A program made the position numbers and the translations under genes. The notes below the pieces were generated by a model. It was not told where the DNA came from and did not search any database. It worked only from the letters and a program-made list of their open reading frames with translations. Positions 53-32,238 of a stretch of DNA of 64,000 nt are shown here, piece by piece. The stretch spans positions 64,001-128,000 of IMG/VR virus record IMGVR_UViG_3300005259_000074; one strand, given 5' to 3'. The stretch comes from a virus (Duplodnaviria > Caudoviricetes). Position 1 is the stretch's first letter, and every line of letters starts with the position of its first letter.

Positions 53-265
53 TCATATCTCGTCCATCTTGTCGATAGCGTCGGCCTCGGCGTGCGCTAG
101 AGAAGATGCGCACATAGTGCGAGCTGGATCACCGCGGTGGATGAAGAAAGACACACACTTACCGTCTTTGATGTCAGGTTGGAAGAACTCGCAATCTCTT
201 CCGTCAGGAGATTCGCAGAAATAGCGGTAGAATCCCCAAGATCGTTTTTTGACGCACGCAGTCAT
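53..265 (-). CDS. Cys-rich miniprotein, acidic-hydrophobic C-tail family
   Basis: C..CEFF..C..C pattern, ends KMDEI; overlap-coupled to 262..465. Confidence 0.85.
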   Translation of the reverse strand: MTACVKKRSWGFYRYFCESPDGRDCEFFQPDIKDGKCVSFFIHRGDPARTMCASSLAHAEADAIDKMDEI

Positions 266-465
266 AATTCCTCTAGTTGTTCTAGCGCTATCATCTCTCT
301 GTTGTTGCAGATCTCCCCGTCACATGAAAAATACGTGCACACCGGATAATCGAGGTCTCTGTTGGGTTTGTACCCGGTACAGTTGCGAGCTCGCCCTCTG
401 ATGAGACACTTCCACTCACCTAATTGTGGGTATGCGTAAAAGAATATCTCCGCGTAGTCTTTCAT
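262..465 (-). CDS. Cys-rich miniprotein, C-tail family
   Basis: ends QLEEL; 4-nt overlaps on both sides. Confidence 0.85.
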   Translation of the reverse strand: MKDYAEIFFYAYPQLGEWKCLIRGRARNCTGYKPNRDLDYPVCTYFSCDGEICNNREMIALEQLEEL

Positions 466-710
466 ATCGCCTCCAGACGAGACAACACGTCACAGTCGCG
501 GTGCGCTTTTCCCGATAGACAGTGCATTATGTCTGGGTTGTACCCGCACTCGTAAAAAGAAGGGCGAAGTCGGGAGTGGAACACCCTCCCAGGTTCGAAG
601 TACTTACACCGTTCTTGGCCACTCGCTAGACCACAGAGGTATTCGCCGTCGTATTTCCTGCAGTAGTTTGTTGATTTAGTGCTCGTGTTGTCCACAGTGG
701 CCTCCATCAC
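462..710 (-). CDS. Cys-rich miniprotein, C-tail family
   Basis: NYC..C..CKYF..C..C, ends RLEAI. Confidence 0.85.
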   Translation of the reverse strand: MMEATVDNTSTKSTNYCRKYDGEYLCGLASGQERCKYFEPGRVFHSRLRPSFYECGYNPDIMHCLSGKAHRDCDVLSRLEAI

Positions 711-722
711 GTTTAGATTCGA

Positions 723-956
723 TCATATGCCCTCTATCTTCATGAGTAGTCTAGCGTCCGGTGATACACACTCGTACTTACCAAACAACGGTTCATACAC
801 AGCATTGGCGCATATATCCAGATCTTCATTCTGTCGTAAGAAACCGGAGCACTGTCTCATAGTCTTGTACCGAGGAGAACACACTCCGACACTAGAAATT
901 CCGCCACACAATATTGTGCTACCACCATCTGAGTACATTAGACACTCATTCATCAT
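723..956 (-). CDS. Cys-rich miniprotein, C-tail family
   Basis: NEC..C..C..C, ends KIEGI. Confidence 0.85.
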   Translation of the reverse strand: MMNECLMYSDGGSTILCGGISSVGVCSPRYKTMRQCSGFLRQNEDLDICANAVYEPLFGKYECVSPDARLLMKIEGI

Positions 957-970
957 TACATCATCCTAGT

Positions 971-1936
971 TCACAAGTTGTCGATGCTAGAGTAGATACC
1001 GATGTCGAGGATATTTCTCAAGCAGGGGTCACACAGAGCCGCTTCCATGGGCATCCTGTGGGTCTCCTTGTCTTCGAAGAACTCAGTCAAGTCTTTTGGA
1101 GCGCCGCACATGAAGCATGTTGGAATCGGATCTACTATGATCCTCTCTTTCATCTCTTGACACAGAGTCTGCAAACTTTTCTCATACAAGCGTTCAAAAG
1201 TAGACACGCCACTGAACATCTTGTGACCGATGTCTTTCTTCTTAAAAACGCACATTTTACAGTACTTATCGTCTCCACCGCATATTCTGTCTATCAAATG
1301 GCACGGAGTCGTCTGCTGTATCACGCTGGAACTGAGAGCTATGTGATCCTTCTTCGTCTTTGCAAATGGCTGCAACACTGGAAAACACGCTTCGCAGAAC
1401 CTCTGATAGCTGGCTCCGGCGAACTTGAACTCAGCTTGATCGTCCCAACACGATTTCTTTCTATGACAGTTCTCCCATTTATCATACTGAGTCCGCTCTA
1501 CTAGCCCCCTAAGCACCTTTGACATCGACACATCGGCAAATGGAATGCCCGACATGTTGAAGCTCTCTCCGTCGAATTCTATCTGGAGTTTGTCCCTTCC
1601 AGTGCGACGGACTCCTTTGACACCCCGGTCCTGGTCTGAGAAATGGTCATTCATGCTTGCGTTGCAAGCTACGACATCACCGACTTTCGCTATGCGCGTG
1701 TTACAACCACTGGAAGGAAAGCAGAAGTTGTTCGCCGACAACGACAGTGCGATATTGGCGTCTATGGGAAGATCGAACATGTCGTTTATCGCGTCTAAGA
1801 ACTGTAGTTCTTCGTCAGATATGGGATTACGAGACAAGATGAGCTCTGCAGCTAAAGCTGGCATGCTCCTACTGCCCAAGTCTACTACGAATGACGTCGT
1901 AGAGCTGTTGCTGACGAATCCTCTCCTCGTCTTCAT
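971..1936 (-). CDS. NSSSSS-leader family protein with Cys-rich C-terminal region
   Basis: start moved to ATG 1936 (ATGA overlap, GGAGGAG SD); MKTRRGFVSNSSTTSFVV; CxxC pairs; ends IDNL. Confidence 0.85.
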   Translation of the reverse strand: MKTRRGFVSNSSTTSFVVDLGSRSMPALAAELILSRNPISDEELQFLDAINDMFDLPIDANIALSLSANNFCFPSSGCNTRIAKVGDVVACNASMNDHFSDQDRGVKGVRRTGRDKLQIEFDGESFNMSGIPFADVSMSKVLRGLVERTQYDKWENCHRKKSCWDDQAEFKFAGASYQRFCEACFPVLQPFAKTKKDHIALSSSVIQQTTPCHLIDRICGGDDKYCKMCVFKKKDIGHKMFSGVSTFERLYEKSLQTLCQEMKERIIVDPIPTCFMCGAPKDLTEFFEDKETHRMPMEAALCDPCLRNILDIGIYSSIDNL

Positions 1937-2145
1937 ATCTCCTCCAGGTTCTGAGTCAGTATCGCATCGTAGTTGAGACATTTCTGATCTAACGAAAAAT
2001 CGTCATCTGTTATCTGTCCTGTCTTAAAATTTGAGGAAAAGATGCAAGCGTACATGACGTTCTTCGGGCATTGCTGTGGGCATGGCATCGACATTATATC
2101 GTGATAACAACGATATTCTCCACTGTCGTCTTTCCTGCAGTGCAT
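1933..2145 (-). CDS. Cys-rich miniprotein, C-tail family
   Basis: ends NLEEI. Confidence 0.85.
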   Translation of the reverse strand: MHCRKDDSGEYRCYHDIMSMPCPQQCPKNVMYACIFSSNFKTGQITDDDFSLDQKCLNYDAILTQNLEEI

Positions 2146-2146
2146 T

Positions 2147-2395
2147 CTATATCCCCTCCATCTTCATATCGGCCAACCTATCTGCGACAGCTTCGGGACA
2201 CCTGCCCCCGTGGAACTCAGCTCGGATGTCTTCGTACATACAGGTACCTACCAGAGCCGCTGATTCTTTGAAGTTCGCGCACTTTCGCTGGTAGTCGCGG
2301 CGATCTAAGCAATAATACCCTCCGCAGATCCACTTAGACCAAGCAAACTTCGACCTGGTGTTCTCCCTGCATAAGTTAGATTTGACACCGCTCAT
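2147..2395 (-). CDS. Cys-rich miniprotein, C-tail family
   Basis: NLC.., ends KMEGI. Confidence 0.85.
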   Translation of the reverse strand: MSGVKSNLCRENTRSKFAWSKWICGGYYCLDRRDYQRKCANFKESAALVGTCMYEDIRAEFHGGRCPEAVADRLADMKMEGI

Positions 2396-2649
2396 ATGTT
2401 GTCCAGTTTCATCTCTATTTCCGCGTCTTCAAGGGCCGCTTTGCACACGCACACTCTCATGCCGAACCACTCGCGAGGTCCTTGATGGGAGAATCTGCAC
2501 TTATCGTATTCTCCCTCGCGCGGTTTGAAGAACTCACACGCTGACACATCGATATACTCACCAGATCCTCTCATTTGGGTCCCAGGACTCTGGCACATCC
2601 CGTACATTCCCTCGTCATTCCGGTGTATCCAGCATAAGTTAGTCATCAT
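2392..2649 (-). CDS. Cys-rich miniprotein, C-tail family
   Basis: NLC..CEFF..CVC, ends KLDNI. Confidence 0.85.
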   Translation of the reverse strand: MMTNLCWIHRNDEGMYGMCQSPGTQMRGSGEYIDVSACEFFKPREGEYDKCRFSHQGPREWFGMRVCVCKAALEDAEIEMKLDNI

Positions 2650-2903
2650 ATCTCCTCCAACTTCGATGCGATATAACTGTCGGCCCTCGCTTCTTTAGAA
2701 TTGCAGTATGCGTACCCTCTCATGTAGTACGCGCAGATATTCTCCTTACCTTCTAGAGATGCGTAGACACACGCTTGGAACTCCCTGACTGGACCTCTTA
2801 GGTGCGAATCCGCGGCATAGTATTCCTTTTTGTACTTAGCAGTGCAGGAATAAGAGTCCGCACCATATCTATCATCATTAAACTTACAGTAGTTAGACTT
2901 CAT
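2646..2903 (-). CDS. Cys-rich miniprotein, C-tail family
   Basis: start moved to MKSNYCK (ATGA overlap); ends KLEEI. Confidence 0.85.
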   Translation of the reverse strand: MKSNYCKFNDDRYGADSYSCTAKYKKEYYAADSHLRGPVREFQACVYASLEGKENICAYYMRGYAYCNSKEARADSYIASKLEEI

Positions 2904-3154
2904 ACATCCTCCAACTTCGAGATGCTCACTCTGTCCCAGCGCGCTGCCTGACACTCGCAGCGGCAGCTGACAGGATCGTAGTACGTGCACACCCCATAGA
3001 GCTGGGAATCAGTTTCGTAGAAGTCACACGGTTTCTGGATCTTGACTATAGCGCGTTCCATGACGAGGTGGTTCCTGTCTTTCTCGTCGACAAACACGCA
3101 GTAGCACTCGTCTTCTGACTTCACGTACGTGCAAGCGTTGTACTCTTCTCTCAC
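2900..3154 (-). CDS. Cys-rich miniprotein, C-tail family
   Basis: CDFY..C..CRCEC, ends KLEDV. Confidence 0.85.
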   Translation of the reverse strand: MREEYNACTYVKSEDECYCVFVDEKDRNHLVMERAIVKIQKPCDFYETDSQLYGVCTYYDPVSCRCECQAARWDRVSISKLEDV

Positions 3155-3402
3155 AGCTCCTCCATCTTCATTATCACCGCTGCATCAGGATGTTGGCACC
3201 TGCTGTAGTACTCCCGGGAGTTCACATCTGTCTTGTCGATGTGTTCGTGGTGCCCTCTGCGGTAGCGGCATAGCTTGTACTCCTGGTCGGCGAACATTAC
3301 ACCGCTGGATAGGCGGCTGATCTCGAACATCTCGCACTCAGCTTGTGGCCAACCGTGGTCTTTGCACACTGCGATCTCGTCGATGAACTTACACAAGTTC
3401 AT
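3151..3402 (-). CDS. Cys-rich miniprotein, C-tail family
   Basis: start moved to MNLCK; ends KMEEL. Confidence 0.85.
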   Translation of the reverse strand: MNLCKFIDEIAVCKDHGWPQAECEMFEISRLSSGVMFADQEYKLCRYRRGHHEHIDKTDVNSREYYSRCQHPDAAVIMKMEEL

Positions 3403-3611
3403 AAGTCCTCTATCTTCTCTGTTATTTTCAAGTCTTCCCAAGCTTCTACGCTGATACAAGTGGCTGGACACTTCCGATGTCGGCAGTCGAACCACTTTCC
3501 ATCCGCCCTGTCGAAGTACTTACACATGCTCATGAGTTCCCACGCAGTGCAGGTGTACTTGCGTTCGATTTCGTGTCTGGCGCAGAAGTTGACTTTGATT
3601 TCTTCGTTCAT
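3399..3611 (-). CDS. Cys-rich miniprotein, C-tail family
   Basis: start moved to MNEEIKVNFC; ends KIEDL. Confidence 0.85.
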   Translation of the reverse strand: MNEEIKVNFCARHEIERKYTCTAWELMSMCKYFDRADGKWFDCRHRKCPATCISVEAWEDLKITEKIEDL

Positions 3612-3892
3612 ATCTTCTCGATGGCTCTGGTCAGCAGTTCGTCCGTCATCGCGTCTCCGTTCAGACATATGACGTACCCGATGTCCCTCGCGTAAGAGTA
3701 GATGCAATCCTTAGAGCAGTTCTTTCCTTTCATGAATGCGCTGTATTTGCAGTATCTGTCTGGAGGCATCCCGGTGCTGTAATGGTCTTCGTATTCTTCG
3801 ACGGAGATGTTCCTACCGACACACATGAACTCATCGTCGACTGAGACGCACAAGTTGTCTCCTCTGCTGTAAGGATTTGACCTCATGTTCAT
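3608..3892 (-). CDS. Cys-rich miniprotein, C-tail family
   Basis: NLC..CKYS..C, ends AIEKI. Confidence 0.85.
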   Translation of the reverse strand: MNMRSNPYSRGDNLCVSVDDEFMCVGRNISVEEYEDHYSTGMPPDRYCKYSAFMKGKNCSKDCIYSYARDIGYVICLNGDAMTDELLTRAIEKI

Positions 3893-4104
3893 AATTCCTC
3901 TAGTTTCTCAGCAAGTAATGCATCTGTATGTGCATCTTCACAAATACATGTAAAGAAACTGTTGTACATGCACGATGAATTCCACAATCTTCGTTTGAAA
4001 TAAGTACAATCTCGCTGTTCATCAGTGTACTCACAAGAGAACCTCAAACTATACTCTCGTGGTACCATCATCAAACGAATTAACTTGCACTTGTTCTCCT
4101 TCAT
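3889..4104 (-). CDS. Cys-rich miniprotein, C-tail family
   Basis: MKENKC..CTYF..CIC, ends KLEEL. Confidence 0.88.
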   Translation of the reverse strand: MKENKCKLIRLMMVPREYSLRFSCEYTDEQRDCTYFKRRLWNSSCMYNSFFTCICEDAHTDALLAEKLEEL

Positions 4105-4310
4105 AACTCTTCTATCTTTGCGTTGACTTCAGCCTCCTCTTGAGCTGTCTTGTGATTGCAGTACTCATCGTATTCTCCGCTGGTGAATTTACACCATCTT
4201 GAAGAACTACTGTCAAAGTACTTGCACTTCCAGTTGATGTCGTCGGTGCAATAGAATCTCTCAGAAGTTTTATTGTAGTTGAGCATCTTCACACACTTGT
4301 TTTCCTTCAT
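4101..4310 (-). CDS. Cys-rich miniprotein, C-tail family
   Basis: start moved to MKENKCVK; ends KIEEL. Confidence 0.88.
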   Translation of the reverse strand: MKENKCVKMLNYNKTSERFYCTDDINWKCKYFDSSSSRWCKFTSGEYDEYCNHKTAQEEAEVNAKIEEL

Positions 4311-4519
4311 AGCCTTTCCATCACCTCCACCGCCTGTGATTCTCGCTGTGCTGAGTAGCTCCTGCAGTACTCGTTGTGCTCTCCATCCGACTCGCGGCAA
4401 CAGTGGCGGTAGTCCCTGTAGTCGGGTGCGTAGTAGTCGCAGGGTTTCCCGCGTAATCGATAGCAGTAGAAATACCACTTTCCATTTACTACGACACTGT
4501 GACATCCATTCTTCTTCAT
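4307..4519 (-). CDS. Cys-rich miniprotein, C-tail family
   Basis: CDYY..CC..C, ends VMERL. Confidence 0.85.
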   Translation of the reverse strand: MKKNGCHSVVVNGKWYFYCYRLRGKPCDYYAPDYRDYRHCCRESDGEHNEYCRSYSAQRESQAVEVMERL

Positions 4520-4737
4520 ATCTTATCTAGTCCTATGCCTATCTTAGCTTCGTCGCACTTACAGAGTCTTCCGACCCCTGTGATGAATAATTTTCCGGCG
4601 TATATGCACATCCCGCGGCACTTTAGCTTCTTGCTCCGGACGTAGTAGTCGCACTCTGTCGCCCGACCTTTCGCGCGAGTCAAGTAATTGGTGCAGTACG
4701 TCCTGCCATCAGTTTCATTCAACCGACACATGTTCAC
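4516..4737 (-). CDS. Cys-rich miniprotein, C-tail family
   Basis: MNMC..CDYY..CKC, ends GLDKI. Confidence 0.85.
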   Translation of the reverse strand: MNMCRLNETDGRTYCTNYLTRAKGRATECDYYVRSKKLKCRGMCIYAGKLFITGVGRLCKCDEAKIGIGLDKI

Positions 4738-4738
4738 G

Positions 4739-4963
4739 TCATATCTCCCACATTCGGACGTCTATCAGCGCTTCTCTGTTGGTACACCTACACGACACTC
4801 TGCTGAGGCGGTCCACCTGTTTGCTGTGGACGCACGCGTTGGGGAATTCCCCATCTTCGCTGAAGTAGCAGCACTCCTTAGGATCAATGAGCATCACCGG
4901 AGCTCCACACATCAGAGATTCATCGTTCATGTTCTTCCACAGGAGACTTCTGACGTCACGCAT
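4739..4963 (-). CDS. Cys-rich miniprotein, C-tail family
   Basis: CCYF..C..CRC, ends RMWEI (variant tail). Confidence 0.8.
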   Translation of the reverse strand: MRDVRSLLWKNMNDESLMCGAPVMLIDPKECCYFSEDGEFPNACVHSKQVDRLSRVSCRCTNREALIDVRMWEI

Positions 4964-4964
4964 G

Positions 4965-5207
4965 TCACAGCCCTCTCATCTTCAGCTCTAACAGTGCTTC
5001 ATCACTAGTGCACATGCGAAAAGGAAGAGTACTATCTATGTTCTTCCCGTACTCGCACACGTTGTCGTAGATCAAATAGTGCCTGTCCATCTCTTCATTA
5101 CAGCATCGCTCGAAGTAATCGCAGGTGGTTTGTTCAACGTTGCTACTGCTGATTATCGCGCCGCACAAGTGAGGACCGTCCTCGTTAGTTGAAAGGCAGT
5201 AGTTCAC
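4965..5207 (-). CDS. Cys-rich miniprotein, C-tail family
   Basis: MNYC..CDYF, ends KMRGL (variant tail). Confidence 0.82.
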   Translation of the reverse strand: MNYCLSTNEDGPHLCGAIISSSNVEQTTCDYFERCCNEEMDRHYLIYDNVCEYGKNIDSTLPFRMCTSDEALLELKMRGL

Positions 5208-5422
5208 AGCTCCTCCATCTGTTTGTCTAATATAGCGTCTTTACAGAAGCAGGTGTAAGTAGTGTTAGAACTTGGGGTCTCGTATCCTTCGTATGCGCAC
5301 TTGCGAGTCCCGTCTTTCCACGATAACATATTGTTGAGTTGGTAGAAATCGCATACTAACCTAGAAGATGTGATCCACCCGCAAGTCGCTTTCCCATTTT
5401 CAGATATGTGACAGTAGTTCAC
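5204..5422 (-). CDS. Cys-rich miniprotein, C-tail family
   Basis: GTG start via GTGA overlap; ends ILDKQMEEL. Confidence 0.85.
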   Translation of the reverse strand: MNYCHISENGKATCGWITSSRLVCDFYQLNNMLSWKDGTRKCAYEGYETPSSNTTYTCFCKDAILDKQMEEL

Positions 5423-5646
5423 AACTCCTCCAGTTTCAGGTCCATCTTCAGCGACGGACAGCAACATACCACAGTAAAATTCGAATAAGGAAGACAAAGC
5501 GCGTACTTACACGGTTGTCTGTGGTTCAACAAGTTGACTCTATTGATGACTTCGCAGTAATCGCAGAGTTCTATGCCGCGAGCGGAGTCGTAGCACCCCG
5601 AAGTACATCGGTACACACCGGCTGACTCGTAGCATGCTATCTTCAT
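5419..5646 (-). CDS. Cys-rich miniprotein, C-tail family
   Basis: start moved to MKIAC; ends KLEEL. Confidence 0.85.
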   Translation of the reverse strand: MKIACYESAGVYRCTSGCYDSARGIELCDYCEVINRVNLLNHRQPCKYALCLPYSNFTVVCCCPSLKMDLKLEEL

Positions 5647-5882
5647 AGTTCCTCCATCGCCCTCTCCAGCTTGGCTTCTACACAAGAACACTGGAAATTC
5701 CTGTTACCGACTTCTTCTGCATGCTTACAAAAATCAGCGACTCGCTTCCTTTCGAAGAACTTGCAGTCCCTTTCTTCTCCGTCGTGAATCGGCAGCGTTG
5801 GTGGGAACCGCTTCAGATCGTAATCGTGGAACACGTGCCTGTGGCATTCCCCACTGGAAGAACACAAGTTGTGCAGTATCAT
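5643..5882 (-). CDS. Cys-rich miniprotein, C-tail family
   Basis: NLC..CKFF..CSC, ends AMEEL. Confidence 0.85.
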   Translation of the reverse strand: MILHNLCSSSGECHRHVFHDYDLKRFPPTLPIHDGEERDCKFFERKRVADFCKHAEEVGNRNFQCSCVEAKLERAMEEL

Positions 5883-6088
5883 AGATCCTCCACTGCGTTG
5901 TCCATCTGAGCGTCTTTACACGAGCAGAACACGTGACACGAGTCACTGGTGTCTGCGTGCACGCAGACTGGCCTCAACATGAAGGTAGAAACACCACCTA
6001 GGTCATCGTAGTACTCGCATTCATGATTCTTCATAGCGAGCAGCATGCAGTAGTACTTTCCATTTATCGCTTTAGAGCAGGCGTTCAT
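5879..6088 (-). CDS. Cys-rich miniprotein, C-tail family
   Basis: start moved to MNACS; ends AVEDL. Confidence 0.85.
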   Translation of the reverse strand: MNACSKAINGKYYCMLLAMKNHECEYYDDLGGVSTFMLRPVCVHADTSDSCHVFCSCKDAQMDNAVEDL

Positions 6089-6375
6089 AGTTCCTCTATG
6101 TTGAATTCGACTGCCGCGCTGAGGATTGCATCGCAACTGCTGCACCTATTCATCATCTTCCAGCCTATGTCGGAAGAGACGTCTACTTCGAAAGCGCACC
6201 CTAAGTAGGTCACGTACTTGATGTGGGTTGAAGATGGTTGTTCTACCGCTTTTTTCCGAGAAAAGGGATCGAATTCACATGGTTGAGATAATATGTTTTT
6301 CGCCATCTCGTGTCGCTTAGTGCAGTAAGCCACTCGCGTGGTGTTTTCGCGCTCTATCTTGCAGTAGTTCATCAT
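6085..6375 (-). CDS. Cys-rich miniprotein, C-tail family
   Basis: NYC..CEF, ends NIEEL. Confidence 0.85.
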   Translation of the reverse strand: MMNYCKIERENTTRVAYCTKRHEMAKNILSQPCEFDPFSRKKAVEQPSSTHIKYVTYLGCAFEVDVSSDIGWKMMNRCSSCDAILSAAVEFNIEEL

Positions 6376-6572
6376 AACTCTTCCATCTGTTTGTCTAGTA
6401 TAGCTTCTTTGCTATTGCACAGAGCAGCCGTACCTCTTAGATTTTCGTACATACACCTCTGTATCATCTTACTGAAGATTTCTCCTGGTTCATAGTATAC
6501 ACACTCACAACTACCTAATATAGTTTGACAGTAATAAGTCTTATCGATCAGAACGCACTTGTTGTCTTTCAC
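6372..6572 (-). CDS. Cys-rich miniprotein, C-tail family
   Basis: MKDNKC..CVYY, ends ILDKQMEEL. Confidence 0.85.
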   Translation of the reverse strand: MKDNKCVLIDKTYYCQTILGSCECVYYEPGEIFSKMIQRCMYENLRGTAALCNSKEAILDKQMEEL

Positions 6573-6775
6573 AACCTCTCCAACGCATATGACAGCTTAG
6601 CTTCTTTCGCCGCTTCTTCGCAATAGCACTGGTGCCCGTGGCAGTGGAGACAGCCGTTCTTGTCATCGCCACGAGACACGAAGTACTTGCACTCCTCTGC
6701 AGCCATGTCAAAGAACTCTGACTTGCGCCAGCACATCTCCCTTTTTACAGAGCACATGTTGATTAAACGTTTCAC
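6569..6775 (-). CDS. Cys-rich miniprotein, C-tail family
   Basis: CKYF..C..CYC, ends ALERL. Confidence 0.85.
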   Translation of the reverse strand: MKRLINMCSVKREMCWRKSEFFDMAAEECKYFVSRGDDKNGCLHCHGHQCYCEEAAKEAKLSYALERL

Positions 6776-6993
6776 AATTCCTCCAGCACGTCGGCAATTG
6801 GGTCTGTTGCAGCGATAGCGACGGGATTTTTACACACTCTAATGTTGGGGTTCGATTTAAGTATCCCGGCGAACTGACACCAAGACTTGTGGGACTTCTT
6901 GAAGAACTTACATCCATCCCACATCGACATTCCAGATAGTGAAACGCACTTCCATCCAGCGACCCGGTCGTACTTACACATGTTAGTCTTCAT
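6772..6993 (-). CDS. Cys-rich miniprotein, C-tail family
   Basis: MKTNMC..CKFF, ends VLEEL. Confidence 0.85.
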   Translation of the reverse strand: MKTNMCKYDRVAGWKCVSLSGMSMWDGCKFFKKSHKSWCQFAGILKSNPNIRVCKNPVAIAATDPIADVLEEL

Positions 6994-7199
6994 ATCTCTT
7001 CAATCTTCGCTGCGGTGATGGCTTCTTCGCAAGTGCACAACTTCATGCGCCTAACTCCAGATAAATTCTCGTATATTAACGTCTTCGTGTGTGCGCACAT
7101 TACCCACCACGTAGTGGGATTCCGATAGTCGCACGCCCCTCGCGAAGTCAGATTGACACACAATGCTCTACCTTCTTCGTCTATTTTACAGTGGTTCAT
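6990..7199 (-). CDS. Cys-rich miniprotein, C-tail family
   Basis: MNHC..CDY..CTC, ends KIEEI. Confidence 0.85.
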   Translation of the reverse strand: MNHCKIDEEGRALCVNLTSRGACDYRNPTTWWVMCAHTKTLIYENLSGVRRMKLCTCEEAITAAKIEEI

Positions 7200-7637: not shown

Positions 7638-7662
7638 GGGAAATCTGAGAAAAATTTCTATT

Positions 7663-16535: not shown

Positions 16536-16542
16536 GATACTT

Positions 16543-21935: not shown

Positions 21936-21936
21936 C

Positions 21937-25191: not shown

Positions 25192-25625
25192 CGTCAATAA
25201 GGCTGGCTGAGGTATTGATCAACCCTCCGTATAAATTCGAGCGCCATAATTTGTACTCCGTGTGCTCTATAGAAGACACCTCAGTCAATCTGATATGGAT
25301 GTGGAAACCAGAAGACGTCGCGACGGTGCAGCGTGCGTGGTTAGAAGATGTGATATCGCTCTATGATAGCGGCGTATTCGCCGAGGAGAGACGGCAGATT
25401 TTCAGATCTTGGTTCGAAGACTCAAAGTGTAGAGTCGGTTGCATATACAGCATCTCGAATGCACTTTCTTCTAGGTACGAGAATGACCTCAAAGAGCTAG
25501 GCTCAAGGTTGTCTTGCATAGACATCGCTGGATATGAGTGGAGAGAGTACTTTTACGCTGCTGACGAGAGAGGAAGAAAATTCTTGCAAGAAGCAGAGAT
25601 CATGGCAAAACTAGAACTGTTGTGA
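25185..25625 (+). CDS. Hypothetical protein carrying the family tail
   Basis: non-family fold ending AKLELL. Confidence 0.78.
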   Translation: MLTSIRLAEVLINPPYKFERHNLYSVCSIEDTSVNLIWMWKPEDVATVQRAWLEDVISLYDSGVFAEERRQIFRSWFEDSKCRVGCIYSISNALSSRYENDLKELGSRLSCIDIAGYEWREYFYAADERGRKFLQEAEIMAKLELL

Positions 25626-25658: not shown

Positions 25659-26111
25659 ATGAAAGTTAGAGTCGGGTTCGTCAGCAACAGCAGCTCTAGC
25701 AGTTTCGTAGTGTCAGGACCCGGAGAGTTGATCCTCGAGAACACTCTCGTCGGCAAAATCTATGTTATCGGAGCTAATGGTAAGAGAGAGTTCGGCTGGG
25801 AGAGAGAACGGACTTTTGATTTTGATTCGAAGGTTAACTGGGCAGCAATGCAGGCGATGTACTCTCCAGACGACTTGCTCGAGATGAAGATGTACATGCT
25901 GGAGAACGTCATCAAAGAGCACATGGGAGCGGCCCACGTGGATATCTCGTTGCAGATCGATGATTACGACAAACCTGGGTACGGCTACATAGACCACCAG
26001 TCGACTTCATCAGAAGACGATAGTTTCTTAGAGATATTTGAGTCGGAACAACAGCTGAAGGAGTTCCTGTTCTGCCCGAAGAACTACATACAAGGTGGAA
26101 ATGACAACTGA
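25659..26111 (+). CDS. NSSSSS-leader family protein
   Basis: MKVRVGFVSNSSSSSFVV; GYIDHQS; ends GGNDN; start moved to 25659. Confidence 0.88.
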   Translation: MKVRVGFVSNSSSSSFVVSGPGELILENTLVGKIYVIGANGKREFGWERERTFDFDSKVNWAAMQAMYSPDDLLEMKMYMLENVIKEHMGAAHVDISLQIDDYDKPGYGYIDHQSTSSEDDSFLEIFESEQQLKEFLFCPKNYIQGGNDN

Positions 26112-26120: not shown

Positions 26121-26474
26121 ATGAAGTTCAGAGATGGTTTCGTCAGCAATTCGTCCAGCAGTTCTTTCGTCGTGTTCGGCGTCAAGCTGAGCGCTAGAAA
26201 GTTGGGCGAAGAAGACTACTTCATCAGCAGCATCGCAGAAGACATCGGTTGCTACGACGAAGATGGGATGGCGATACTCCTAGGAAATGATGACATCTAC
26301 TTCGGGAAGATACTCGCAGAGGGAGAAGACGACTTGACTGAGAGCGAGACATCAGCAAGAGAATTAGCTGACCTCGAAGAGAGCATCGTCGACAACCTCA
26401 AGAAAGTGCTGAAGAAAGACAAGCAGAACATGAAAATGACGGTCAAGCTCTACACGGGGCAGAGATCATGCTGA
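26121..26474 (+). CDS. NSSSSS-leader family protein
   Basis: MKFRDGFVSNSSSSSFVV; GAGGAG SD. Confidence 0.88.
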   Translation: MKFRDGFVSNSSSSSFVVFGVKLSARKLGEEDYFISSIAEDIGCYDEDGMAILLGNDDIYFGKILAEGEDDLTESETSARELADLEESIVDNLKKVLKKDKQNMKMTVKLYTGQRSC

Positions 26475-26487: not shown

Positions 26488-26859
26488 GTGAAGACTAGAG
26501 ACGGATTCATCAGCAACAGCAGCTCTTCGAGCTTCGTCGTAGTGCTTTCACCGAAGTTCAACATCGATAAGTTCATCGATGAGAACTACGAGAAGAATCC
26601 AGACACTGACGAGGAGCTCGTTTTTGCGGAAGAAGCTCTCTCGAGGTCTGAGTTGGTGGATGTCATCAAACAGATAAGAAGTGGAAAAATCATCTACGAA
26701 AATGACTGCGACTACGGCATCTACGTCAGCCTCCAAGAAAAACTGAAAGATTTCGTGATAGTTGAGAATGAAATTGGACCAGACGAGGGACACATCCTCG
26801 GCTTGAAGATGACCGAACTAGAGAGACAACTCAAAAAGATAAAGGAATACGGAGTATGA
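26488..26859 (+). CDS. NSSSSS-leader family protein
   Basis: GTG start; KTRDGFISNSSSSSFVV. Confidence 0.88.
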   Translation: MKTRDGFISNSSSSSFVVVLSPKFNIDKFIDENYEKNPDTDEELVFAEEALSRSELVDVIKQIRSGKIIYENDCDYGIYVSLQEKLKDFVIVENEIGPDEGHILGLKMTELERQLKKIKEYGV

Positions 26860-27188
26860 AGGTCAGGAATGGTTTCGTGTCGAACAGCAGCTCTTCGAGC
26901 TTCTGCATCTACGGGTTCCGCATCGACGAGCACGACTACGAGCTGCGCGGGCAGATCGAAGAGTGGATATCTAAGAACGTGGGGAACCGCGGGTGGACGA
27001 TTTCCAGTGGTCCCGGTGGAGAGGCCATCTACTGCGGCCGCGACTTCACCACTATCAAAGATGACGAGACAGGCGCTCAGTTCAAGAAGTCGGTCGCGGA
27101 CGCCGTCGAGAAGATGACTGTCGAGCTGGGACTCCCGGAAGATTGCAAGACACTTTCCTCATTCGAAGAAGGCTGGTACGACGGCTGA
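26856..27188 (+). CDS. NSSSSS-leader family protein
   Basis: MKVRNGFVSNSSSSSFCIY; ends EEGWYDG. Confidence 0.88.
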   Translation: MKVRNGFVSNSSSSSFCIYGFRIDEHDYELRGQIEEWISKNVGNRGWTISSGPGGEAIYCGRDFTTIKDDETGAQFKKSVADAVEKMTVELGLPEDCKTLSSFEEGWYDG

Positions 27189-27235: not shown

Positions 27236-28159
27236 ATGGAAAAGAGAGAACTCTGGGTAGACAAACACGCCCCACCGACTCTCGATGACATGGTCATCGA
27301 CAGCGACATGAGGAAGATGTTCGAAGAGTACGTCAAGCAGAAGACGATCCCCAACATGCTGCTCGCCGGAAGACAGGGAACTGGAAAGAGCACGTTGGCT
27401 CATGCATTAGCCCACGACATCGGTGCGACAGTGCTCTACGTCAATGCTGGATACGAGTCAGGCATTGAAGTCATAAGGACTAAGGTCAAAGACTTCTGCG
27501 ATGCTTTCGCTTTCGGCGGTGCACTCAAAGTCGTGATATTAGATGAGGCGGACGCTCTATCAGGTCAGGGTGGTGGAGGGAACGGCGCCAGCGCTCAGGG
27601 AGGTCTCAGAAACCTCATTGAAGAGGCGTCTGATGACACTCGCTTCATCATGACGTGTAACTACGTGAACAAGATAATTCCCGCACTACAATCACGCTGC
27701 ACGCCTATAAAGGTCAAGTTTACCGTAGAAGACGTGATGCGGAGAGTCGTGAAGATACTGAAAGCCGAGAAGGTGAAGTTCGACGCAGACACCCTAACGG
27801 CATTCACCGCTAGGATCGTCAAGAAGAAGTTCCCAGACGTCAGGTCGATCATCAACTGCTTGGAGCAGTGGAGCATATCCGGAGAGCTGAAAGACGGAAA
27901 AGCTACTGATGACCAAGCTGGCGATGAAGTGGTGAATAAGATACTCGCTTTTGGGACTATGAGAGAAGCTCGCGAGTGGTGGATATCGAACGAAGAGGCG
28001 TTCGCGTCTGACTACGAAGCGCTAGCGTCTAAGGTGTTCGACGCGCTAGAAGACCCGAAGAAGCAGCTCGCTGTGGCCGAGGGGATGTACCGCATGGCGG
28101 TCTGCCTCGACAAGGAGATCCAGTTCGCAGCGATGGTTTACCAACTCAAGGGATCGTGA
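27236..28159 (+). CDS. Clamp loader AAA+ subunit (T4 gp44 / RFC small subunit-like)
   Basis: WVDKHAP, Walker A GRQGTGKS, Walker B ILDEAD, SRC motif. Confidence 0.95.
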   Translation: MEKRELWVDKHAPPTLDDMVIDSDMRKMFEEYVKQKTIPNMLLAGRQGTGKSTLAHALAHDIGATVLYVNAGYESGIEVIRTKVKDFCDAFAFGGALKVVILDEADALSGQGGGGNGASAQGGLRNLIEEASDDTRFIMTCNYVNKIIPALQSRCTPIKVKFTVEDVMRRVVKILKAEKVKFDADTLTAFTARIVKKKFPDVRSIINCLEQWSISGELKDGKATDDQAGDEVVNKILAFGTMREAREWWISNEEAFASDYEALASKVFDALEDPKKQLAVAEGMYRMAVCLDKEIQFAAMVYQLKGS

Positions 28160-28160
28160 C

Positions 28161-28649
28161 ATGTCAAACAGCACTGCCGGTGTTCCGCAGTCTACTTCTA
28201 TGTTGACAGCAGAGAACTTGTGCAGCAGCCGCGCATCGATAGATTCCCTACATGTCAATAAATCTTTGAACGCAAACACCGCTCAGATATCATGCGACAA
28301 TGTGGACATTGACATGTCAAATTCAAATTTGAGGATGTCTGGTGGAATTTTAAACATGTTGAATACATCTGTGTTTATTTCTGAGTCAATGAATCTGCAC
28401 TTTGGAAAACTGCATATCAGATCGGTCGATGGACTACCCAATGATGTACTGCCATGCAAGGAGATCTCCGATTGCGAGATATTTAGAGGGTCAACGTTAA
28501 TTGTCTCTTATGACAGCATAGTCCACATGGCGTTCACACCGTTCTGCTACCATTGCACTCACTTTAATCCAGACAGAATAGACTTTAAGAAGAAAATAGC
28601 AGATCACTACAAAGACGCCGAAGCCAACAAGAAGTTAGAATCTATCTGA
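28161..28649 (+). CDS. Hypothetical protein carrying the family tail
   Basis: C-terminal CYHC; ends KKLESI. Confidence 0.7.
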   Translation: MSNSTAGVPQSTSMLTAENLCSSRASIDSLHVNKSLNANTAQISCDNVDIDMSNSNLRMSGGILNMLNTSVFISESMNLHFGKLHIRSVDGLPNDVLPCKEISDCEIFRGSTLIVSYDSIVHMAFTPFCYHCTHFNPDRIDFKKKIADHYKDAEANKKLESI

Positions 28650-28661: not shown

Positions 28662-28901
28662 ATGGAACACATAGATATAAAAGAACACTGTGAACCGGTG
28701 TATTCATCTAGTCATCCACCGTACTTGCACTGCAAATACCAGAACGAGTTTTCCGAAAGAATGTACCGGTGTCCGATGTTTGAATCATCTTTCGTCGACA
28801 AAAATTTCTGCTACTGGTTCATTGCGAGAGATCGTGGAGAGTGCCGGACCCCATCCGCGCTGAAGGAACTAGAAGTAGATGAGAAGATGGACAGCATATG
28901 A
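28662..28901 (+). CDS. Cys-rich miniprotein, C-tail family
   Basis: C..C..CPMF..C..C, ends KMDSI. Confidence 0.85.
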   Translation: MEHIDIKEHCEPVYSSSHPPYLHCKYQNEFSERMYRCPMFESSFVDKNFCYWFIARDRGECRTPSALKELEVDEKMDSI

Positions 28902-29143
28902 GGATGACGTTCAAATATCATAAACACGGAGACCGCCGTACTGTCAAGAAGTTCATATGGTGGCCTATGATACTGATGCTAGACCCACCGAAGAACGGTT
29001 CTCTCGAACGGGGTGATGTGCAGATGCGGTGGTTGGAGTACACTTACGTCACTCAGCTGTACCTCATTAGCGGAAAAGGATCTCACTGGATAGACTTTTG
29101 TTGGGGTGACGCTGCGTTAGAAAGAGCTCTTGATGACCTCTAG
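28898..29143 (+). CDS. Hypothetical protein carrying the family tail
   Basis: KKFIWWP..RWLE; ends ALDDL-TAG. Confidence 0.78.
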   Translation: MRMTFKYHKHGDRRTVKKFIWWPMILMLDPPKNGSLERGDVQMRWLEYTYVTQLYLISGKGSHWIDFCWGDAALERALDDL

Positions 29144-29772
29144 CACTTGGAGTACTTGGAGACACCTGCTCTCCGTCTCTTTATCTTCTCGAAAGCGTTC
29201 GCATAGTCGTGAGCGTCATCATAGTCCCAGTTCTCTACTGCCATTTGGACTATCTCGCGGTACTCATGCTCTTCTATGAACGGCCTTTCTGCTTCTAAGA
29301 TCTTGTCGTCTATGATGATCAAGTTCTTCTGCCCGACGTAGTCGTACACCAGACCGTGACCACCGTACTTGAAGTTGGGATCGAACAGCCGTCTGACTTT
29401 CTGTCCGTCGACTAGAGATATCTCGAAGTCGCCTCTAGTGATCTTCATGCCGACTAGAAGACCACATGCGTTGACTCTTGGAACGAGGCCACTCTCTGGC
29501 TGACGCATTGCAACTTTGGCTTCTTCGTAGTCCTTCCCACTCCTCATTAGTTCACGCATCTTAGTATACGTCTCGATGAAGAAGTCAGCTTCATCAGCGT
29601 ATATCTTATCTAGCCACAGTCTTCCCACTGGTACTATCGGGTTCATATCGTGGTCAGCCAGACCGGAGAAATCTATGTCGAGAGTGTTCCTGATGTGGTA
29701 GCCGTCTACTAACTCCAAGTTCCTGCTGACGGAAAAGTAAGCTTTATTTATGTGGAAAGAAGAAGGGTTCAT
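29140..29772 (-). CDS. Hypothetical protein with zincin-like HExxE...H motif
   Basis: VDG..R..F..GGH, HEYRE, DAHDYA. Confidence 0.8.
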   Translation of the reverse strand: MNPSSFHINKAYFSVSRNLELVDGYHIRNTLDIDFSGLADHDMNPIVPVGRLWLDKIYADEADFFIETYTKMRELMRSGKDYEEAKVAMRQPESGLVPRVNACGLLVGMKITRGDFEISLVDGQKVRRLFDPNFKYGGHGLVYDYVGQKNLIIIDDKILEAERPFIEEHEYREIVQMAVENWDYDDAHDYANAFEKIKRRRAGVSKYSKC

Positions 29773-29969
29773 TCGCCAGCTCCTGGAAAGTCGGGTAGGT
29801 CTAACTTCTCGTGCGAGTAGTCCGTCGGGTCAGCAGTCAACCTATTGCACTCTCTATTCCAGCAAACCGAGCACAACTTCTGCTCGTTCAGCTTGCTGGG
29901 ACGGCGGACGTTGCACTGCAAACCGCAGCGCTGGCATATCTGCATCCTGATGTTGTACCGGTTCTCCAT
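29769..29969 (-). CDS. Small zinc-finger protein
   Basis: CQRC and CSVC pairs; start moved downstream of TAAATA (29975-29980). Confidence 0.7.
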   Translation of the reverse strand: MENRYNIRMQICQRCGLQCNVRRPSKLNEQKLCSVCWNRECNRLTADPTDYSHEKLDLPDFPGAGE

Positions 29970-30033
29970 GTCTCTATTTATCATTTCAGAAACATCTCGT
30001 TGATAATTAACGACTTAGAAGAAATAATGCGAG

Positions 30034-30431: not shown

Positions 30432-30742
30432 GATACGCAATGGAGCAGACACTCAGGAAGTACTGCGATAAGACGGATTTTGGCATCATCCGTAAGACGA
30501 TAGCCGAGGTCGGAGCCCTCCACGGTTTCGGACATGGGACGGGAAAGATCTACTCGGTCCGTAAAGCGCTGGAAGACGCCAGCATACAGCCACCGCCGGT
30601 AGAATCTCTCGACGCCCTCATAGCGGTCGCCATCAACATCATTCGCGACACGGACCACGAACTGGCAGCTCGGTTCCAGAGCTACGACCTAGACGAGATC
30701 ACCACCGACGAATTCACCAAGAACATGAGGGACGGAAAGTGA
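30428..30742 (+). CDS. Hypothetical protein
   Basis: GTGA-coupled ORF. Confidence 0.75.
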   Translation: MRYAMEQTLRKYCDKTDFGIIRKTIAEVGALHGFGHGTGKIYSVRKALEDASIQPPPVESLDALIAVAINIIRDTDHELAARFQSYDLDEITTDEFTKNMRDGK

Positions 30743-31155
30743 AGACAGAAAACGTGCTGACTTTGCTCAAGAAGGTGGGGACTCCTGATGACGTGCTCAA
30801 TAAGATGAGGCTCGACATACTGAGTGACGGCGTTGAACCAGTCTTAGAGGGCTTCTTGGAGAAATTGAACCACGACGAGATCAAAAAACTCTGTTCTTCC
30901 ATCCGGACTTCTTACAGAGGCACGGTCAATTTCATACCGATTATCATCACAATGTTGAAAAACTTCTCGTCAGCCTACCCTGATCTGGACATGCGAGTTC
31001 TCATCGAGAAGACTGAGCGCGCGCGCGATAAAAAGGAATTTTTGAAAGAATTGCGCGAGGTAATGAACTTACCTCTTCAAGACAAAGCAAAGAATGACGC
31101 CGCTCGTCGGAAGTTCTTGTCTGAGCACTTCGCGAACATAATGAATGAAGAGTAG
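30739..31155 (+). CDS. Hypothetical helical protein
   Basis: GTGA-coupled ORF. Confidence 0.78.
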   Translation: MKTENVLTLLKKVGTPDDVLNKMRLDILSDGVEPVLEGFLEKLNHDEIKKLCSSIRTSYRGTVNFIPIIITMLKNFSSAYPDLDMRVLIEKTERARDKKEFLKELREVMNLPLQDKAKNDAARRKFLSEHFANIMNEE

Positions 31156-31158
31156 GAT

Positions 31159-31380
31159 GTGGTGAAGCGGGAAAACGAGTGTTTCGACGTGGACGATCAC
31201 TGGGACGATGAAGTGAACAACTGTGGTTGTCGTTTCGATAAGAGGTTCTCCCGCTGCCTATTCTACTCGCCAGAGGATGCGGTGTACGACGACTGTAGGT
31301 GGTTTGACGGTTATAGGTACTGCCGAAACCCAGAAGCGATACGCAACAAGAACTTATACAGAGCGATTGACGAAATATGA
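31159..31380 (+). CDS. Cys-rich miniprotein, C-tail family
   Basis: NEC..CLFY..C..C, ends AIDEI. Confidence 0.85.
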   Translation: MVKRENECFDVDDHWDDEVNNCGCRFDKRFSRCLFYSPEDAVYDDCRWFDGYRYCRNPEAIRNKNLYRAIDEI

Positions 31381-31598
31381 TGACCACTAAAAAGAACATG
31401 TGTTGCGATACTGATGACGTCTTAGGAGGTATGCAGAACTGGTGCGCTGCTACGTCTAGAGGACACCTACAATCGGAGTGCAAGTTCTATGGAAAACTTG
31501 CAACTGGATCGTGCTACTGGCGAGACAGATCTGCAATGTGCACTAACCCACTGGCGATAGAAGACAAAGACCTGACTAACGCACTGGAGAAAATATGA
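31377..31598 (+). CDS. Cys-rich miniprotein, C-tail family
   Basis: NMCC..CKFY, ends ALEKI. Confidence 0.85.
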   Translation: MMTTKKNMCCDTDDVLGGMQNWCAATSRGHLQSECKFYGKLATGSCYWRDRSAMCTNPLAIEDKDLTNALEKI

Positions 31599-32014
31599 AC
31601 ACTAGGAGGACGACAGTGGAATCTCACATGAAAGCGACTAGCAAGATGCTAGCAAAGAGGCTGAACAAGACGGCAGAGCTCGCCGAAGACCTCAGGAAGG
31701 AACGCGACATCCTCAGAAGGGGACTGCTCCTGTCGCTCTTGCTGTCCGTCAAGTGGTCTACGAACAAGAAGTCCAACTTCGACCGGCGGAACTCGTGGGA
31801 GGCCAAGATAGGCAGAGAAGCTATCCCGAGGACTGACCTCCGGAAACACGAGACGTTCGGCTACGACTCCGATAGACACGAGGAGACTTCGAAGACTCAC
31901 GTCTTCGTGTGGACTCAGTGCGCTGACGAAGACGGGATCGTGCTCGTCTGCTCTGACATCTCCAGCGAAAAGAAAGTGCGCGCTATTCTCCGACAGCACT
32001 TGGAAGACCTCTGA
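31595..32014 (+). CDS. Hypothetical protein carrying the family tail
   Basis: non-family fold ending HLEDL. Confidence 0.78.
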   Translation: MNTRRTTVESHMKATSKMLAKRLNKTAELAEDLRKERDILRRGLLLSLLLSVKWSTNKKSNFDRRNSWEAKIGREAIPRTDLRKHETFGYDSDRHEETSKTHVFVWTQCADEDGIVLVCSDISSEKKVRAILRQHLEDL

Positions 32015-32238
32015 TGTCAGAGAAGGAGAACATGTGCAAGGCGTATTTCAGGCAGCCCTTTCGACACGTGTACGGTAGGTGCAGCGGGGCGATCGCTGCG
32101 AAGAACTACTCTGAGTGTAAGTTCTTCTGCGCGAATTCTCAGCGTCCCAACAAGTGTTGCTTCAACGACCTCAGCAACTGCTACAACAAAGCAGCCATAA
32201 AGGACAACATGCTAGAAGAAAAGCTCAACGATCTCTAA
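32014..32238 (+). CDS. Cys-rich miniprotein, C-tail family
   Basis: NMC..CKFF..CC..C, ends KLNDL-TAA. Confidence 0.85.
   Translation: MSEKENMCKAYFRQPFRHVYGRCSGAIAAKNYSECKFFCANSQRPNKCCFNDLSNCYNKAAIKDNMLEEKLNDL

Follow-up and report, generated by a model that had tools for sequence, protein, structure and literature searches.

A lineage-specific family of about 100 cysteine-scaffold mini-proteins with a shared, dual-coding C-terminal tail in a large phage genome

Why would a single phage carry dozens of small cysteine-rich proteins that hardly resemble one another except at a few Cys residues and at their C-terminal ends? This question is raised by a 64,000-nucleotide (nt) stretch of viral DNA, hereafter the window, which covers bases 64001-128000 of a single viral contig of 262,470 bp (IMG/VR record IMGVR_UViG_3300005259_000074; completeness estimated at 97% in the record). 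A first-pass annotation of the window, made from the sequence alone, had described about 65 such genes of 60-130 amino acids (aa), lying in five arrays and amounting to about 15 kb, and had proposed that they form an adaptor repertoire in which each variable head binds a different host target and a constant tail docks on one common partner. Combining the open reading frame (ORF) listing with hand curation, we found 63 family genes of 60-130 aa (median 75) that occupy ~15 kb of the window, and a hidden Markov model (HMM) built from curated members recovered 59 of these 63 at E<=0.01, in good agreement with the earlier count. The same HMM gave 111 matches genome-wide and an independent six-frame search of the genome with a 43-sequence alignment (A1) gave 96. 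The family thus extends beyond the window to a total of 96-111 copies across the 262-kb contig, and its share of the genome DNA is ~10% at ~230 nt per gene. As detailed below, this is a real and undescribed architecture, consisting of a lineage-specific family of ~100 paralogues.

The cysteine scaffold of the heads

Five Cys are conserved in alignment A1. Among 164 non-redundant members, from this genome and from metagenomes, C2 to C5 are 98-100% invariant and C1 is present in 89%, and the scaffold includes the motifs C-x-[FY]-[FY] and C-x-x-[ED]-A. The four loops between the Cys range from 5 to 34 residues (median Cys spacings of 10-12), and the distance from C5 to the C terminus is nearly fixed, with quartiles of 14 to 18 residues. 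The heads share a mean pairwise identity of 23%, which falls to 15% once the Cys columns are left out, and their net charge spans about -7 to +6, as expected of diversified surfaces. The picture of a Cys scaffold carrying essentially unalignable loops was therefore accurate, as was the claim that signal peptides are absent, since hydrophobic runs of >=12 residues are absent from the first 30 positions of every member. Totals of 5, 6 and 7 Cys occur in 40, 77 and 25 of the 164 members, respectively, six being the commonest, and the sole common additional Cys lies two residues after C5 (C5+2; 55/164 members). Because the Cys totals are often odd, export signals are missing and four of the Cys are near-invariant, a cytoplasmic Cys4 metal site (Zn or Fe-S) appears likelier than disulfides, which is the better fit that the first-pass annotation had also preferred.

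To obtain a view of the fold, a 66-aa member was modelled with AlphaFold2 from alignment A1 (predicted local distance difference test, pLDDT, 87.1; predicted template modelling score, pTM, 0.69). The model consists of two beta-hairpins (strands 6-9, 12-15, 43-46 and 49-52) followed by a C-terminal helix (residues 55-65) that holds the tail. In a homodimer prediction of the same member the chains were not folded (pLDDT 42), a result that weighs neither way on self-association.

We then looked for known relatives of the head. Ten members gave nothing under E 0.1 against Pfam-A and nothing under E 0.05 against PHROGs v4, no match to the family was found in NCBIfam, and tblastn against 50,697 deposited phage records returned no homologue. 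A HMMER scan of 1.84 billion representatives retrieved 113 proteins, of which 33 come from this very genome and the others are unnamed metagenomic proteins, so that the HMM search led to no characterised family. At the level of structure, Foldseek comparison of the 66-aa model gave 0 matches in the PDB at E<=10, with best matches of E 2.9 among AFDB clusters and E 1.7 in BFVD, and none of 48,161 chains reached Z>=2 with VIA-align. The ESM atlas returned unnamed clusters only, whether queried by structure (template modelling score, TM, 0.5-0.6) or by features (score 0.85). These empty fold searches are not proof of a new fold, as domains this small can slip through. Our literature searches revealed no account of a phage family of ~100 Cys-scaffold mini-proteins and, together with the libraries, no description of a C-terminal motif common to one third of a phage proteome or of gene junctions where a selected peptide motif is also the initiation region of the next gene. 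The earlier statement that no system with this architecture had been described is thus borne out.

Several known types of small Cys domain were considered and rejected. A zinc ribbon or rubredoxin-like domain does not fit, the family having single Cys anchors and no CxxC or CPxCG knuckles; nor does a CCCH zinc finger (C-x7-8-C-x5-C-x3-H), as the spacing is variable and the fourth ligand is Cys, not His. Secreted disulfide mini-proteins (knottin, defensin, EGF-like) were discarded on the basis of the missing export signal and the totals of 5, 6 or 7 Cys. The likeness to zinc ribbons, treble clefs and CCCH fingers lies in small beta-hairpin domains held by four Cys and, for CCCH fingers, in aromatic residues after Cys (C-x-[FY]-[FY] and C-x-[FYH] in the family), whereas the family differs from all three in lacking CxxC, in having five invariant Cys instead of four and loops of 5-34 residues, and in giving no Pfam or structural match. 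A tandem CCCH-like protein (P0097) matches the family profile weakly (E 4e-4). Heads with several Cys domains also occur in the metagenomic proteins P0078, P0096 and P0107 (136, 106 and 307 aa), all of them without the tail.

The C-terminal tail and its dual coding

Counting back from the last residue, the 63 family proteins of the window have L/M/I at position -4 in 62 cases, E/D at -3 in 58, I/L at -1 in 58 (and I/L/V/M in all 63) and K/R at -5 in 39. The profile extends over 12-14 residues, with [ED] at -11, A at -10, L/I/V at -8, K/R at -5, L/I/M at -4, E/D at -3 and L/I at -1, and corresponds to an amphipathic acidic helix that ends [KR]-[LIM]-[ED]-x-[LI]-COOH and is modelled as a helix at residues 55-65 of the 66-aa member. 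The tail is a degenerate motif of residue classes, not a constant sequence, as the last 12 residues share a pairwise identity of 27%. The class pattern [LIM]-[ED]-x-[LI] given in the first-pass annotation stands.

The tail is not confined to the family. The four-residue motif is found at 98/111 family C termini and at 53/335 C termini of non-family genes, against a rate of 0.8% for internal positions (binomial p of about 1e-49 for the non-family genes). These 53 non-family genes, the gp62-like clamp-loader subunit among them, fall into 51 unrelated BLAST clusters once the tail is removed; 25 of them have <=3 Cys and 4 have none. The motif is found on 32/83 non-family genes of 60-100 aa versus 1/39 above 400 aa, and on 27/68 (40%) of the non-family genes with an ATGA overlap. 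Altogether, ~150 of the ~440 phage genes, about one third, carry the tail, and they are mostly small ones. Conversely, the head can exist alone: 12/83 metagenomic or foreign head homologues lack the tail, and two of these were traced to unrelated phages in which the gene is present as a single copy, one lambda-like, with the gene beside SMC-like and RecT genes, and the other with an SU10-type capsid. Head and tail are thus separable modules.

The DNA encoding the tail has a second role. Nearly all members end in xTA-TGA or xTG-TGA, so that the stop overlaps the ATG or GTG with which the following gene starts, and the exact 4-nt overlap is found in 78/111 family ORFs of the genome. The two codons that precede this ending are usually GAG-GAx, such that the tail codons double as Shine-Dalgarno (SD) sequence, spacer and start of the next cistron. 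At one junction of array 1, for example, GAG AAA CTA GAG GAA TTA TGA encodes E-K-L-E-E-L-stop of the gene at 3889-4104 and at the same time supplies GAGGA as the SD, the spacer and the ATG start of the gene at 3608-3892 (see table). Among the 102 non-terminal family ORFs, 56 hold GGAG, GAGG or AGGA within the tail codons. The overlap imposes another constraint of the same kind on the opposite end of the coupled gene: the TGA within ATGA or GTGA forces the second codon to begin with A, which accounts for the M-K, M-N and M-T starts of the family (MKxNxC).

Is the tail, then, nothing but an in-frame reading of the SD that serves the following gene? We could address this question with terminal genes, defined independently of any gene caller as those with no ATG, GTG or TTG within -4 to +40 nt of the stop that opens an ORF of >=40 codons. 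The tail is still recognisable in 8 of the 9 family genes that are terminal in this sense (endings RRLENL, DKMDEI, KKLEDI, EKLNDL, EKLEDL, KIMEDF, LKMEEM and KRLELV), and 1 of the 9 holds an SD-like GGAG, GAGG or AGGA string; 13 terminal non-family tail bearers follow the same pattern. Codon usage shifts in parallel, as Glu at -3 is encoded by GAA and GAG in a ratio of 14:4 in 22 terminal tail genes versus 37:74 in 142 tail genes with a downstream ORF (Fisher p=5e-4), and SD-like strings are present in 3/22 versus 76/142 (p=4e-4). Moreover, the hydrophobic residues at -4 and -1 are encoded by 6-8 different codons, so it is the residue class that is conserved, not the nucleotides. In a control phage of 213 kb (G001), the motif ends 0.9% of ORFs and 0/22 of those at 4-nt overlaps, compared with 9.2% of ORFs and 41.6% at 4-nt overlaps in the genome studied here. 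G001 was also considered as a possible relative and rejected, since tblastn with the polymerase, gp44 and the single-stranded DNA-binding protein (SSB) finds nothing; it is an unrelated phage that has a radical S-adenosylmethionine (rSAM) gene in common with this one. Finally, bacterial proteins are in general enriched in K/R and depleted in hydrophobic residues at the last position (PMC7246954), and the L/I of the tail at -1 is opposite to this bias. The in-frame SD was therefore rejected as the sole explanation, on the evidence of the terminal genes, the codons and the control phage. The tail is under selection at the peptide level, because terminal genes hold the motif yet drop the SD and GAG is favored only where an SD is useful; the preference for GAG when a gene follows shows in turn that the dual coding itself is real.

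Possible roles of heads and tail

A relative from one Joint Genome Institute (JGI) sample (L001, L029) shares the synteny and the long arrays of this genome, and allows the rate of change of the family to be compared with that of its neighbours. The clamp-loader protein gp44 is 92% identical between the two phages (non-synonymous divergence, dN, 0.05), the rSAM protein 86% (dN 0.08) and other well-conserved neighbours 77-94% (dN 0.03-0.17), whereas orthologous mini-proteins are 33-72% identical (dN 0.18-0.69) and one array slot is occupied by a non-orthologous member. The heads thus diverge several times faster than neighbouring genes, and the family turns over. With regard to timing, the 120-bp spacer between the diverging arrays 1 and 2 contains a divergent pair of good matches to the sigma-70-type promoter consensus: TTGACT-17-TAGTAT on the + strand, followed by AAAGGAGG and the GTG start at 7712, and TTTACA-16-TAGATT on the - strand, ahead of the start at 7588. 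The window has a single T4 late box, TATAAATA, and none of the array heads carries it. From these matches, the arrays are probably transcribed early.

The explanation that we prefer, tentatively and at somewhat less than an even chance, combines a repertoire of heads with a shared tail that serves as a handle. Each gene would give a 65-95-aa cytoplasmic mini-protein made of a rigid two-hairpin scaffold with four or five invariant Cys, held by a putative Cys4 metal site (Zn or Fe-S) and leaving four loops free to vary, and continued by the 12-14-residue amphipathic acidic helix ending [KR]-[LIM]-[ED]-x-[LI]-COOH. The genes would be expressed in long translationally coupled chains, probably early and from sigma-70-type promoters, with the last five codons of each gene acting as SD, spacer and start of the next and with the tail being kept by peptide selection. 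The heads would present a repertoire of diversified binding surfaces against host components, for takeover or counter-defence, and the tail would give one factor a common handle for recognising, holding or eliminating all the small proteins that carry it. The data establish the family with its copy number, coupling, scaffold and modularity, as well as the peptide-level selection on the tail, the fast divergence, a narrow range of lineages and the lack of known relatives; what we infer is that metal is bound, that expression is early, that the heads bind host targets and that the tail has a reader. We favor a common handle because a precise pattern is found on ~50 unrelated folds, runs against the general C-terminal bias and persists where the RNA role has lapsed. 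The adaptor idea of the first-pass annotation is partly supported: the modularity, the peptide-level selection and the fast-evolving heads fit it, no common partner was identified, and the binding of a different host or defence target by each head is conjecture. A more far-reaching form, which we regard as doubtful, is a proteome-wide C-terminal address system, in which one phage or host hub would read the ~150 tails and the ~100 mini-binders would act as interchangeable substrate receptors that bring host proteins, such as defence systems, for inhibition, modification or destruction. Such a system would be the viral equivalent of the F-box or BTB adaptors, with the smallest conceivable units and with each tag doubling as the ribosome-binding site of the following gene.

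A number of observations weigh against this preferred explanation. No partner was found for the tail. For a zinc ribbon, isolated Cys at intervals of 10-12 residues and the lack of CxxC knuckles are atypical. In the model, the tail helix is predicted with a pLDDT of 92-95, and its hydrophobic face (-8/-4/-1) may pack on the domain, in which case the tail would be structural and not a docking element. Tails are enriched at 4-nt overlaps, being present on 40% of the non-family genes there, as an origin in a junction cassette predicts. The mini-proteins show a dN/dS of 0.11-0.27 relative to L001 with a saturated synonymous divergence (dS 0.7-3.5), such that positive or diversifying selection on the loops is not demonstrated. 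Lastly, promoter matches are not significantly enriched, with 21 sites in the scanned region versus 14.4 +/- 3.5 in shuffled sequences.

The main rival, which is suggested by the dual coding that the first-pass annotation did not weigh, dispenses with a reader altogether: the tail would be a generically stabilising, well-capped structural helix and, at the same time, a junction cassette of 12-14 codons bringing SD, spacer and start, with duplication and recombination at repeated junctions building the arrays and attaching the ending to unrelated ORFs inserted in them. This would account for the exact overlaps of 78/111 family ORFs, for the SD-like strings in the tail codons of 56/102 non-terminal ones, for the high frequency of non-family tails at ATGA overlaps (27/68) and for the choice of GAG over GAA exactly where a downstream gene is present, as well as for a helix modelled within a compact domain (pLDDT 92-95) and for a degenerate class motif with 27% pairwise identity. 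However, terminal genes without a downstream ORF keep the motif and lose the SD, and the peptide is also kept at the coupled junctions that lack an SD-like string, nearly half of the total. Diverse codons at -4 and -1 leave little microhomology for recombination, and a generic stabilising helix could do without the K/R (-5), L/I/M (-4), E/D (-3) and L/I (-1) that recur on 50 unrelated folds. In addition, selection normally disfavors a hydrophobic residue at the last position (PMC7246954), and an unrelated phage with ATGA junctions, G001, shows no such motif. We consequently see a purely structural and junctional tail as rather unlikely, and as the alternative to be taken most seriously.

Other readings assign the tail to a specific reader. 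As a degron or handling signal for a protease or unfoldase adaptor (a host PDZ-type protein or an unrecognised phage one), it would set a timed turnover of early proteins; the ending does match the class III PDZ ligand pattern [DE]-x-hydrophobic-COOH, a sequence pattern only, and is concentrated on small, probably early proteins (32/83 versus 1/39). For the PDZ-type or other tail-reading protease put forward in the first-pass annotation, no phage-encoded candidate was found: the phage encodes no PDZ_6, PDZ_2 or Peptidase_S41 domain (controls positive in 11-14 of 14 genomes). Bacterial PDZ proteases are moreover mostly periplasmic and the mini-proteins have no export signal, PDZ domains take extended strands and the tail is predicted to be helical, and to our knowledge the motif is unlike any ClpX, Lon or Tsp signal, all of which makes a degron improbable. 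We consider it less probable still that the tail tethers small proteins to the sliding clamp on DNA in the manner of the T4 gp43, gp33 and gp55 ends. The clamp is a lead suggested by three sequence features: the family-B DNA polymerase (DTDS motif, 864 aa; genome 213163-215757, - strand) ends S-D-I-N-S-L-COOH, the clamp-loader small subunit gp62 ends KKLESI here and RKLETI in the relative, and gp44 and gp62 sit in the neighbourhood of the arrays. On the other hand, SDINSL fits the loose motif only, with a chance probability of ~4%, and ~150 competing ligands seem hard to square with replication. Clamp-binding peptides typically contain aromatic residues and the tail has none. Neither Pfam (DNA_PPF, gp45-slide_C) nor an HMM of four annotated gp45s gave a significant clamp match, PHROGs named an SSB and an exonuclease among the clamp candidates and no clamp, and homologues of gp55 and gp33 were not identified in the phage. 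The best candidate for a highly diverged clamp is a 247-aa ORF (genome 197552-198295, - strand; L011:7552-8295) directly 3' of a gp32-like SSB gene (phrog_224), which has a co-linear weak hhalign match to the four gp45s over 146 columns (E 0.0075, probability 5%) and an AlphaFold model with a pLDDT of 32.

Two further readings concern the tail as it is made or modified. Nascent-peptide tuning of RF2 termination at UGA for re-initiation, or a capsid-targeting signal for ejection, would agree with the strong tie of the tail to UGA stops and 4-nt overlaps, and acidic-hydrophobic tails recall the N-terminal capsid-targeting sequences of T4. The tail is also present, however, on terminal genes that stop with TAA or TAG, its 12-14-residue helix is patterned as a surface and not for the tunnel, and the array promoters are sigma-70-like, not late, which leaves this pair of ideas as unlikely as the clamp. 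The least credible of all, in our judgment, is that the mini-proteins are substrates similar to ribosomally synthesized and post-translationally modified peptides (RiPPs; SCIFF/ranthipeptide or sactipeptide type, SCIFF standing for six cysteines in forty-five residues), cross-linked by the adjacent rSAM/SPASM enzyme with the tail as a follower recognition element. The rSAM/SPASM gene does abut array 4 through an ATGA overlap, an adjacency kept in L001, its product is weakly similar to the peptide maturases WgkB, ScmE and StsB, and six is the commonest Cys count. But these maturase matches reach 33 bits versus cut-offs of 380-650, the enzyme falls in large virus-only ESM atlas clusters (178, 81 and 56 members), and homologues 52% and 40% identical to it occur in two phage contigs without the family or the tail, in a search whose positive control worked. 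The head is furthermore a confidently predicted globular domain, the tail is also found on Cys-free proteins, and the arrays are scattered over the genome. SCIFF, ranthipeptide and sactipeptide precursors were accordingly rejected, as there is no leader (Cys1 lies at residue 4-6) and the rSAM gene is decoupled from the family, and we consider the enzyme to be functionally unrelated to the mini-proteins.

The preferred explanation, a head repertoire with a common handle, has partial parallels in known systems. The hyperplastic regions of T4-type phages contain many small, non-essential, fast-turnover early ORFs, placed head to tail behind sigma-70-type promoters and presumed to act in takeover or counter-defence; these are mostly unrelated singletons, whereas here ~100 paralogues with one scaffold and one helix fill ~10% of the genome. 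Libraries of prochlorosin-type lanthipeptides and SCIFF/ranthipeptide precursors similarly consist of paralogues with a constant and a hypervariable Cys-containing segment, and an rSAM/SPASM gene lies beside one of the arrays, but the constant part of the family is C-terminal and helical, its members are folded domains of 65-95 aa and the tail is carried by Cys-free proteins as well. A short acidic end with a hydrophobic last residue and a free carboxylate is common to class III PDZ ligands, the T4 gp43, gp33 and gp55 ends and the tails of SSB and T7 gp2.5. In SSB and gp2.5 one tail serves many partners, while here ~150 proteins share one tail, predicted to be helical, and no reader domain was found in the phage. 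Coupling an expanded set of variable binding modules to one constant element is a logic shared with F-box and BTB substrate receptor families and with the multigene families of large eukaryotic viruses, to which there is no sequence or fold relationship and from which this family differs in being prokaryotic viral and built of tiny units.

If the heads are binders, each genome would hold a natural library of ~100 metal-stabilised 70-residue scaffolds, with more in relatives, whose four loops tolerate nearly any sequence and length, a property relevant to the phage-host arms race and to the design of minimal binder scaffolds. A peptide ending carried by one third of the genes against the C-terminal bias would imply a common recognition step in infection that has been described for no phage. 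The junctions are an unusually clean case of dual coding, in which 15 nt specify both a selected peptide and an initiation region and GAG gives way to GAA when the second role lapses. More generally, the unannotated small-gene content of a large phage can be one expanded family that standard profile libraries miss.

Arrays, neighbouring genes and genome setting

The features of the window are listed in the table. The five arrays lie where the first-pass annotation had placed them, with the exception of the extent of array 4, whose contiguous part is shorter than proposed and is separated by non-family genes from an isolated member. Several non-family genes in and around the arrays have tails or tail-like ends themselves.

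Table. Positions of the arrays, their individual genes and other features in the window (position 1 is the first base of the window)
Feature	Position	Strand	Details
Array 1	53-7588	-	28 family genes in one chain; nearly all joints are ATGA/GTGA 4-nt overlaps
Array 1, interrupting gene	971-1936	-	321 aa, non-family, Cys-rich; N terminus MK[VFT]R[NR]GFVSNSS[ST]SSF; tail-like end SIDNL
Array 1, dual-coded junction	3889-3909	-	end of gene 3889-4104, start of gene 3608-3892
Array 1, member chosen for modelling	6372-6572	-	66 aa; Cys 6, 15, 22, 24, 40, 52; tail KQMEEL
Array 1, final gene	7196-7588	-	two-domain member, 130 aa, 15 Cys, tail present
Sigma-70-like promoter pair (consensus matches)	7610-7691	both	divergent, between arrays 1 and 2
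Array 2	7712-10196	+	7 family genes and a GNAT gene within the chain
Array 2, first gene	7712-8008	+	98 aa, non-family; tail-like end IVDKI
Array 2, family genes	8077-8307, 8304-8540, 8537-8761, 8761-8997, 8994-9218, 9706-9942, 9939-10196	+	
GNAT acetyltransferase gene	9215-9709	+	inside array 2
Array 3	14050-18255	-	15 curated family genes and a 168-aa non-family ORF (17223-17729)
Array 3, terminal gene	14050-14283	-	TAA stop, no SD string; still ends L-D-S-L
86-aa ORF	20697-20957	+	strongly hydrophobic, probably a membrane protein; immediately before the first gene of array 4
Array 4, contiguous part	20970-23388	+	9 curated family genes and an extra HMM match at ~22403-22621; final gene has an ATGA overlap with the start of the rSAM/SPASM gene
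rSAM/SPASM gene	23385-24458	+	non-family, after array 4; adjacency kept in L001
Nucleoside 2-deoxyribosyltransferase-like gene	24718-25191	+	non-family, 3' of the rSAM gene
Non-family tail gene	25185-25625	+	136-146 aa by the start chosen; tail AKLELL (L001 orthologue KKLEEL)
gp44 clamp-loader gene	27236-28159	+	non-family, after array 4
gp62-like clamp-loader small subunit gene	28161-28649	+	162 aa, non-family; tail KKLESI (L001 orthologue RKLETI)
Lone family member	28662-28901	+	just 3' of the clamp-loader genes
81-aa gene	28898-29143	+	non-family, after the lone member; ends ALDDL
210-aa ORF	29140-29772	-	87% identical in L001
71-aa ORF	29769-29984	-	94% identical in L001
Array 5	31162-32238	+	family genes 31162-31380, 31380-31598 and 32014-32238
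Array 5, tail-bearing gene	31595-32014	+	139 aa, non-family; HLEDL
Array 5, terminal gene	32014-32238	+	TAA stop, no SD; ends K-L-N-D-L
T4-type portal gene	48297-51599	+	Pfam Portal_T4, E 4.5e-83

The products encoded by the genome are T4-like and include a portal protein with an intein, a tail sheath protein and the gp44/gp62 clamp loader, among others. A comparison with deposited phages at the DNA level gave no match to the 262-kb genome. Because the top deposited matches of the portal protein (cyanophages) and of gp44 are only ~29% and ~36% identical, respectively, the phage that carries the arrays belongs to a very distant T4-like myovirus lineage. The intein interrupts the portal at residues 419-811 and was recognised through a weak Intein_splicing match that lies under the Pfam cut-off.

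The 71-aa and 210-aa ORFs on the - strand between the lone member and array 5 are the most conserved small genes of the neighbourhood, hence probably essential. A second small paralogue family is defined by the common N terminus MK[VFT]R[NR]GFVSNSS[ST]SSF and gave no Pfam or NCBIfam match. In the window it comprises the gene that interrupts array 1 and three + strand genes (25659-26111, 26121-26474 and 26856-27188), and in L001 it is found at 3894-4349, 4505-4858 and 5242-5574.

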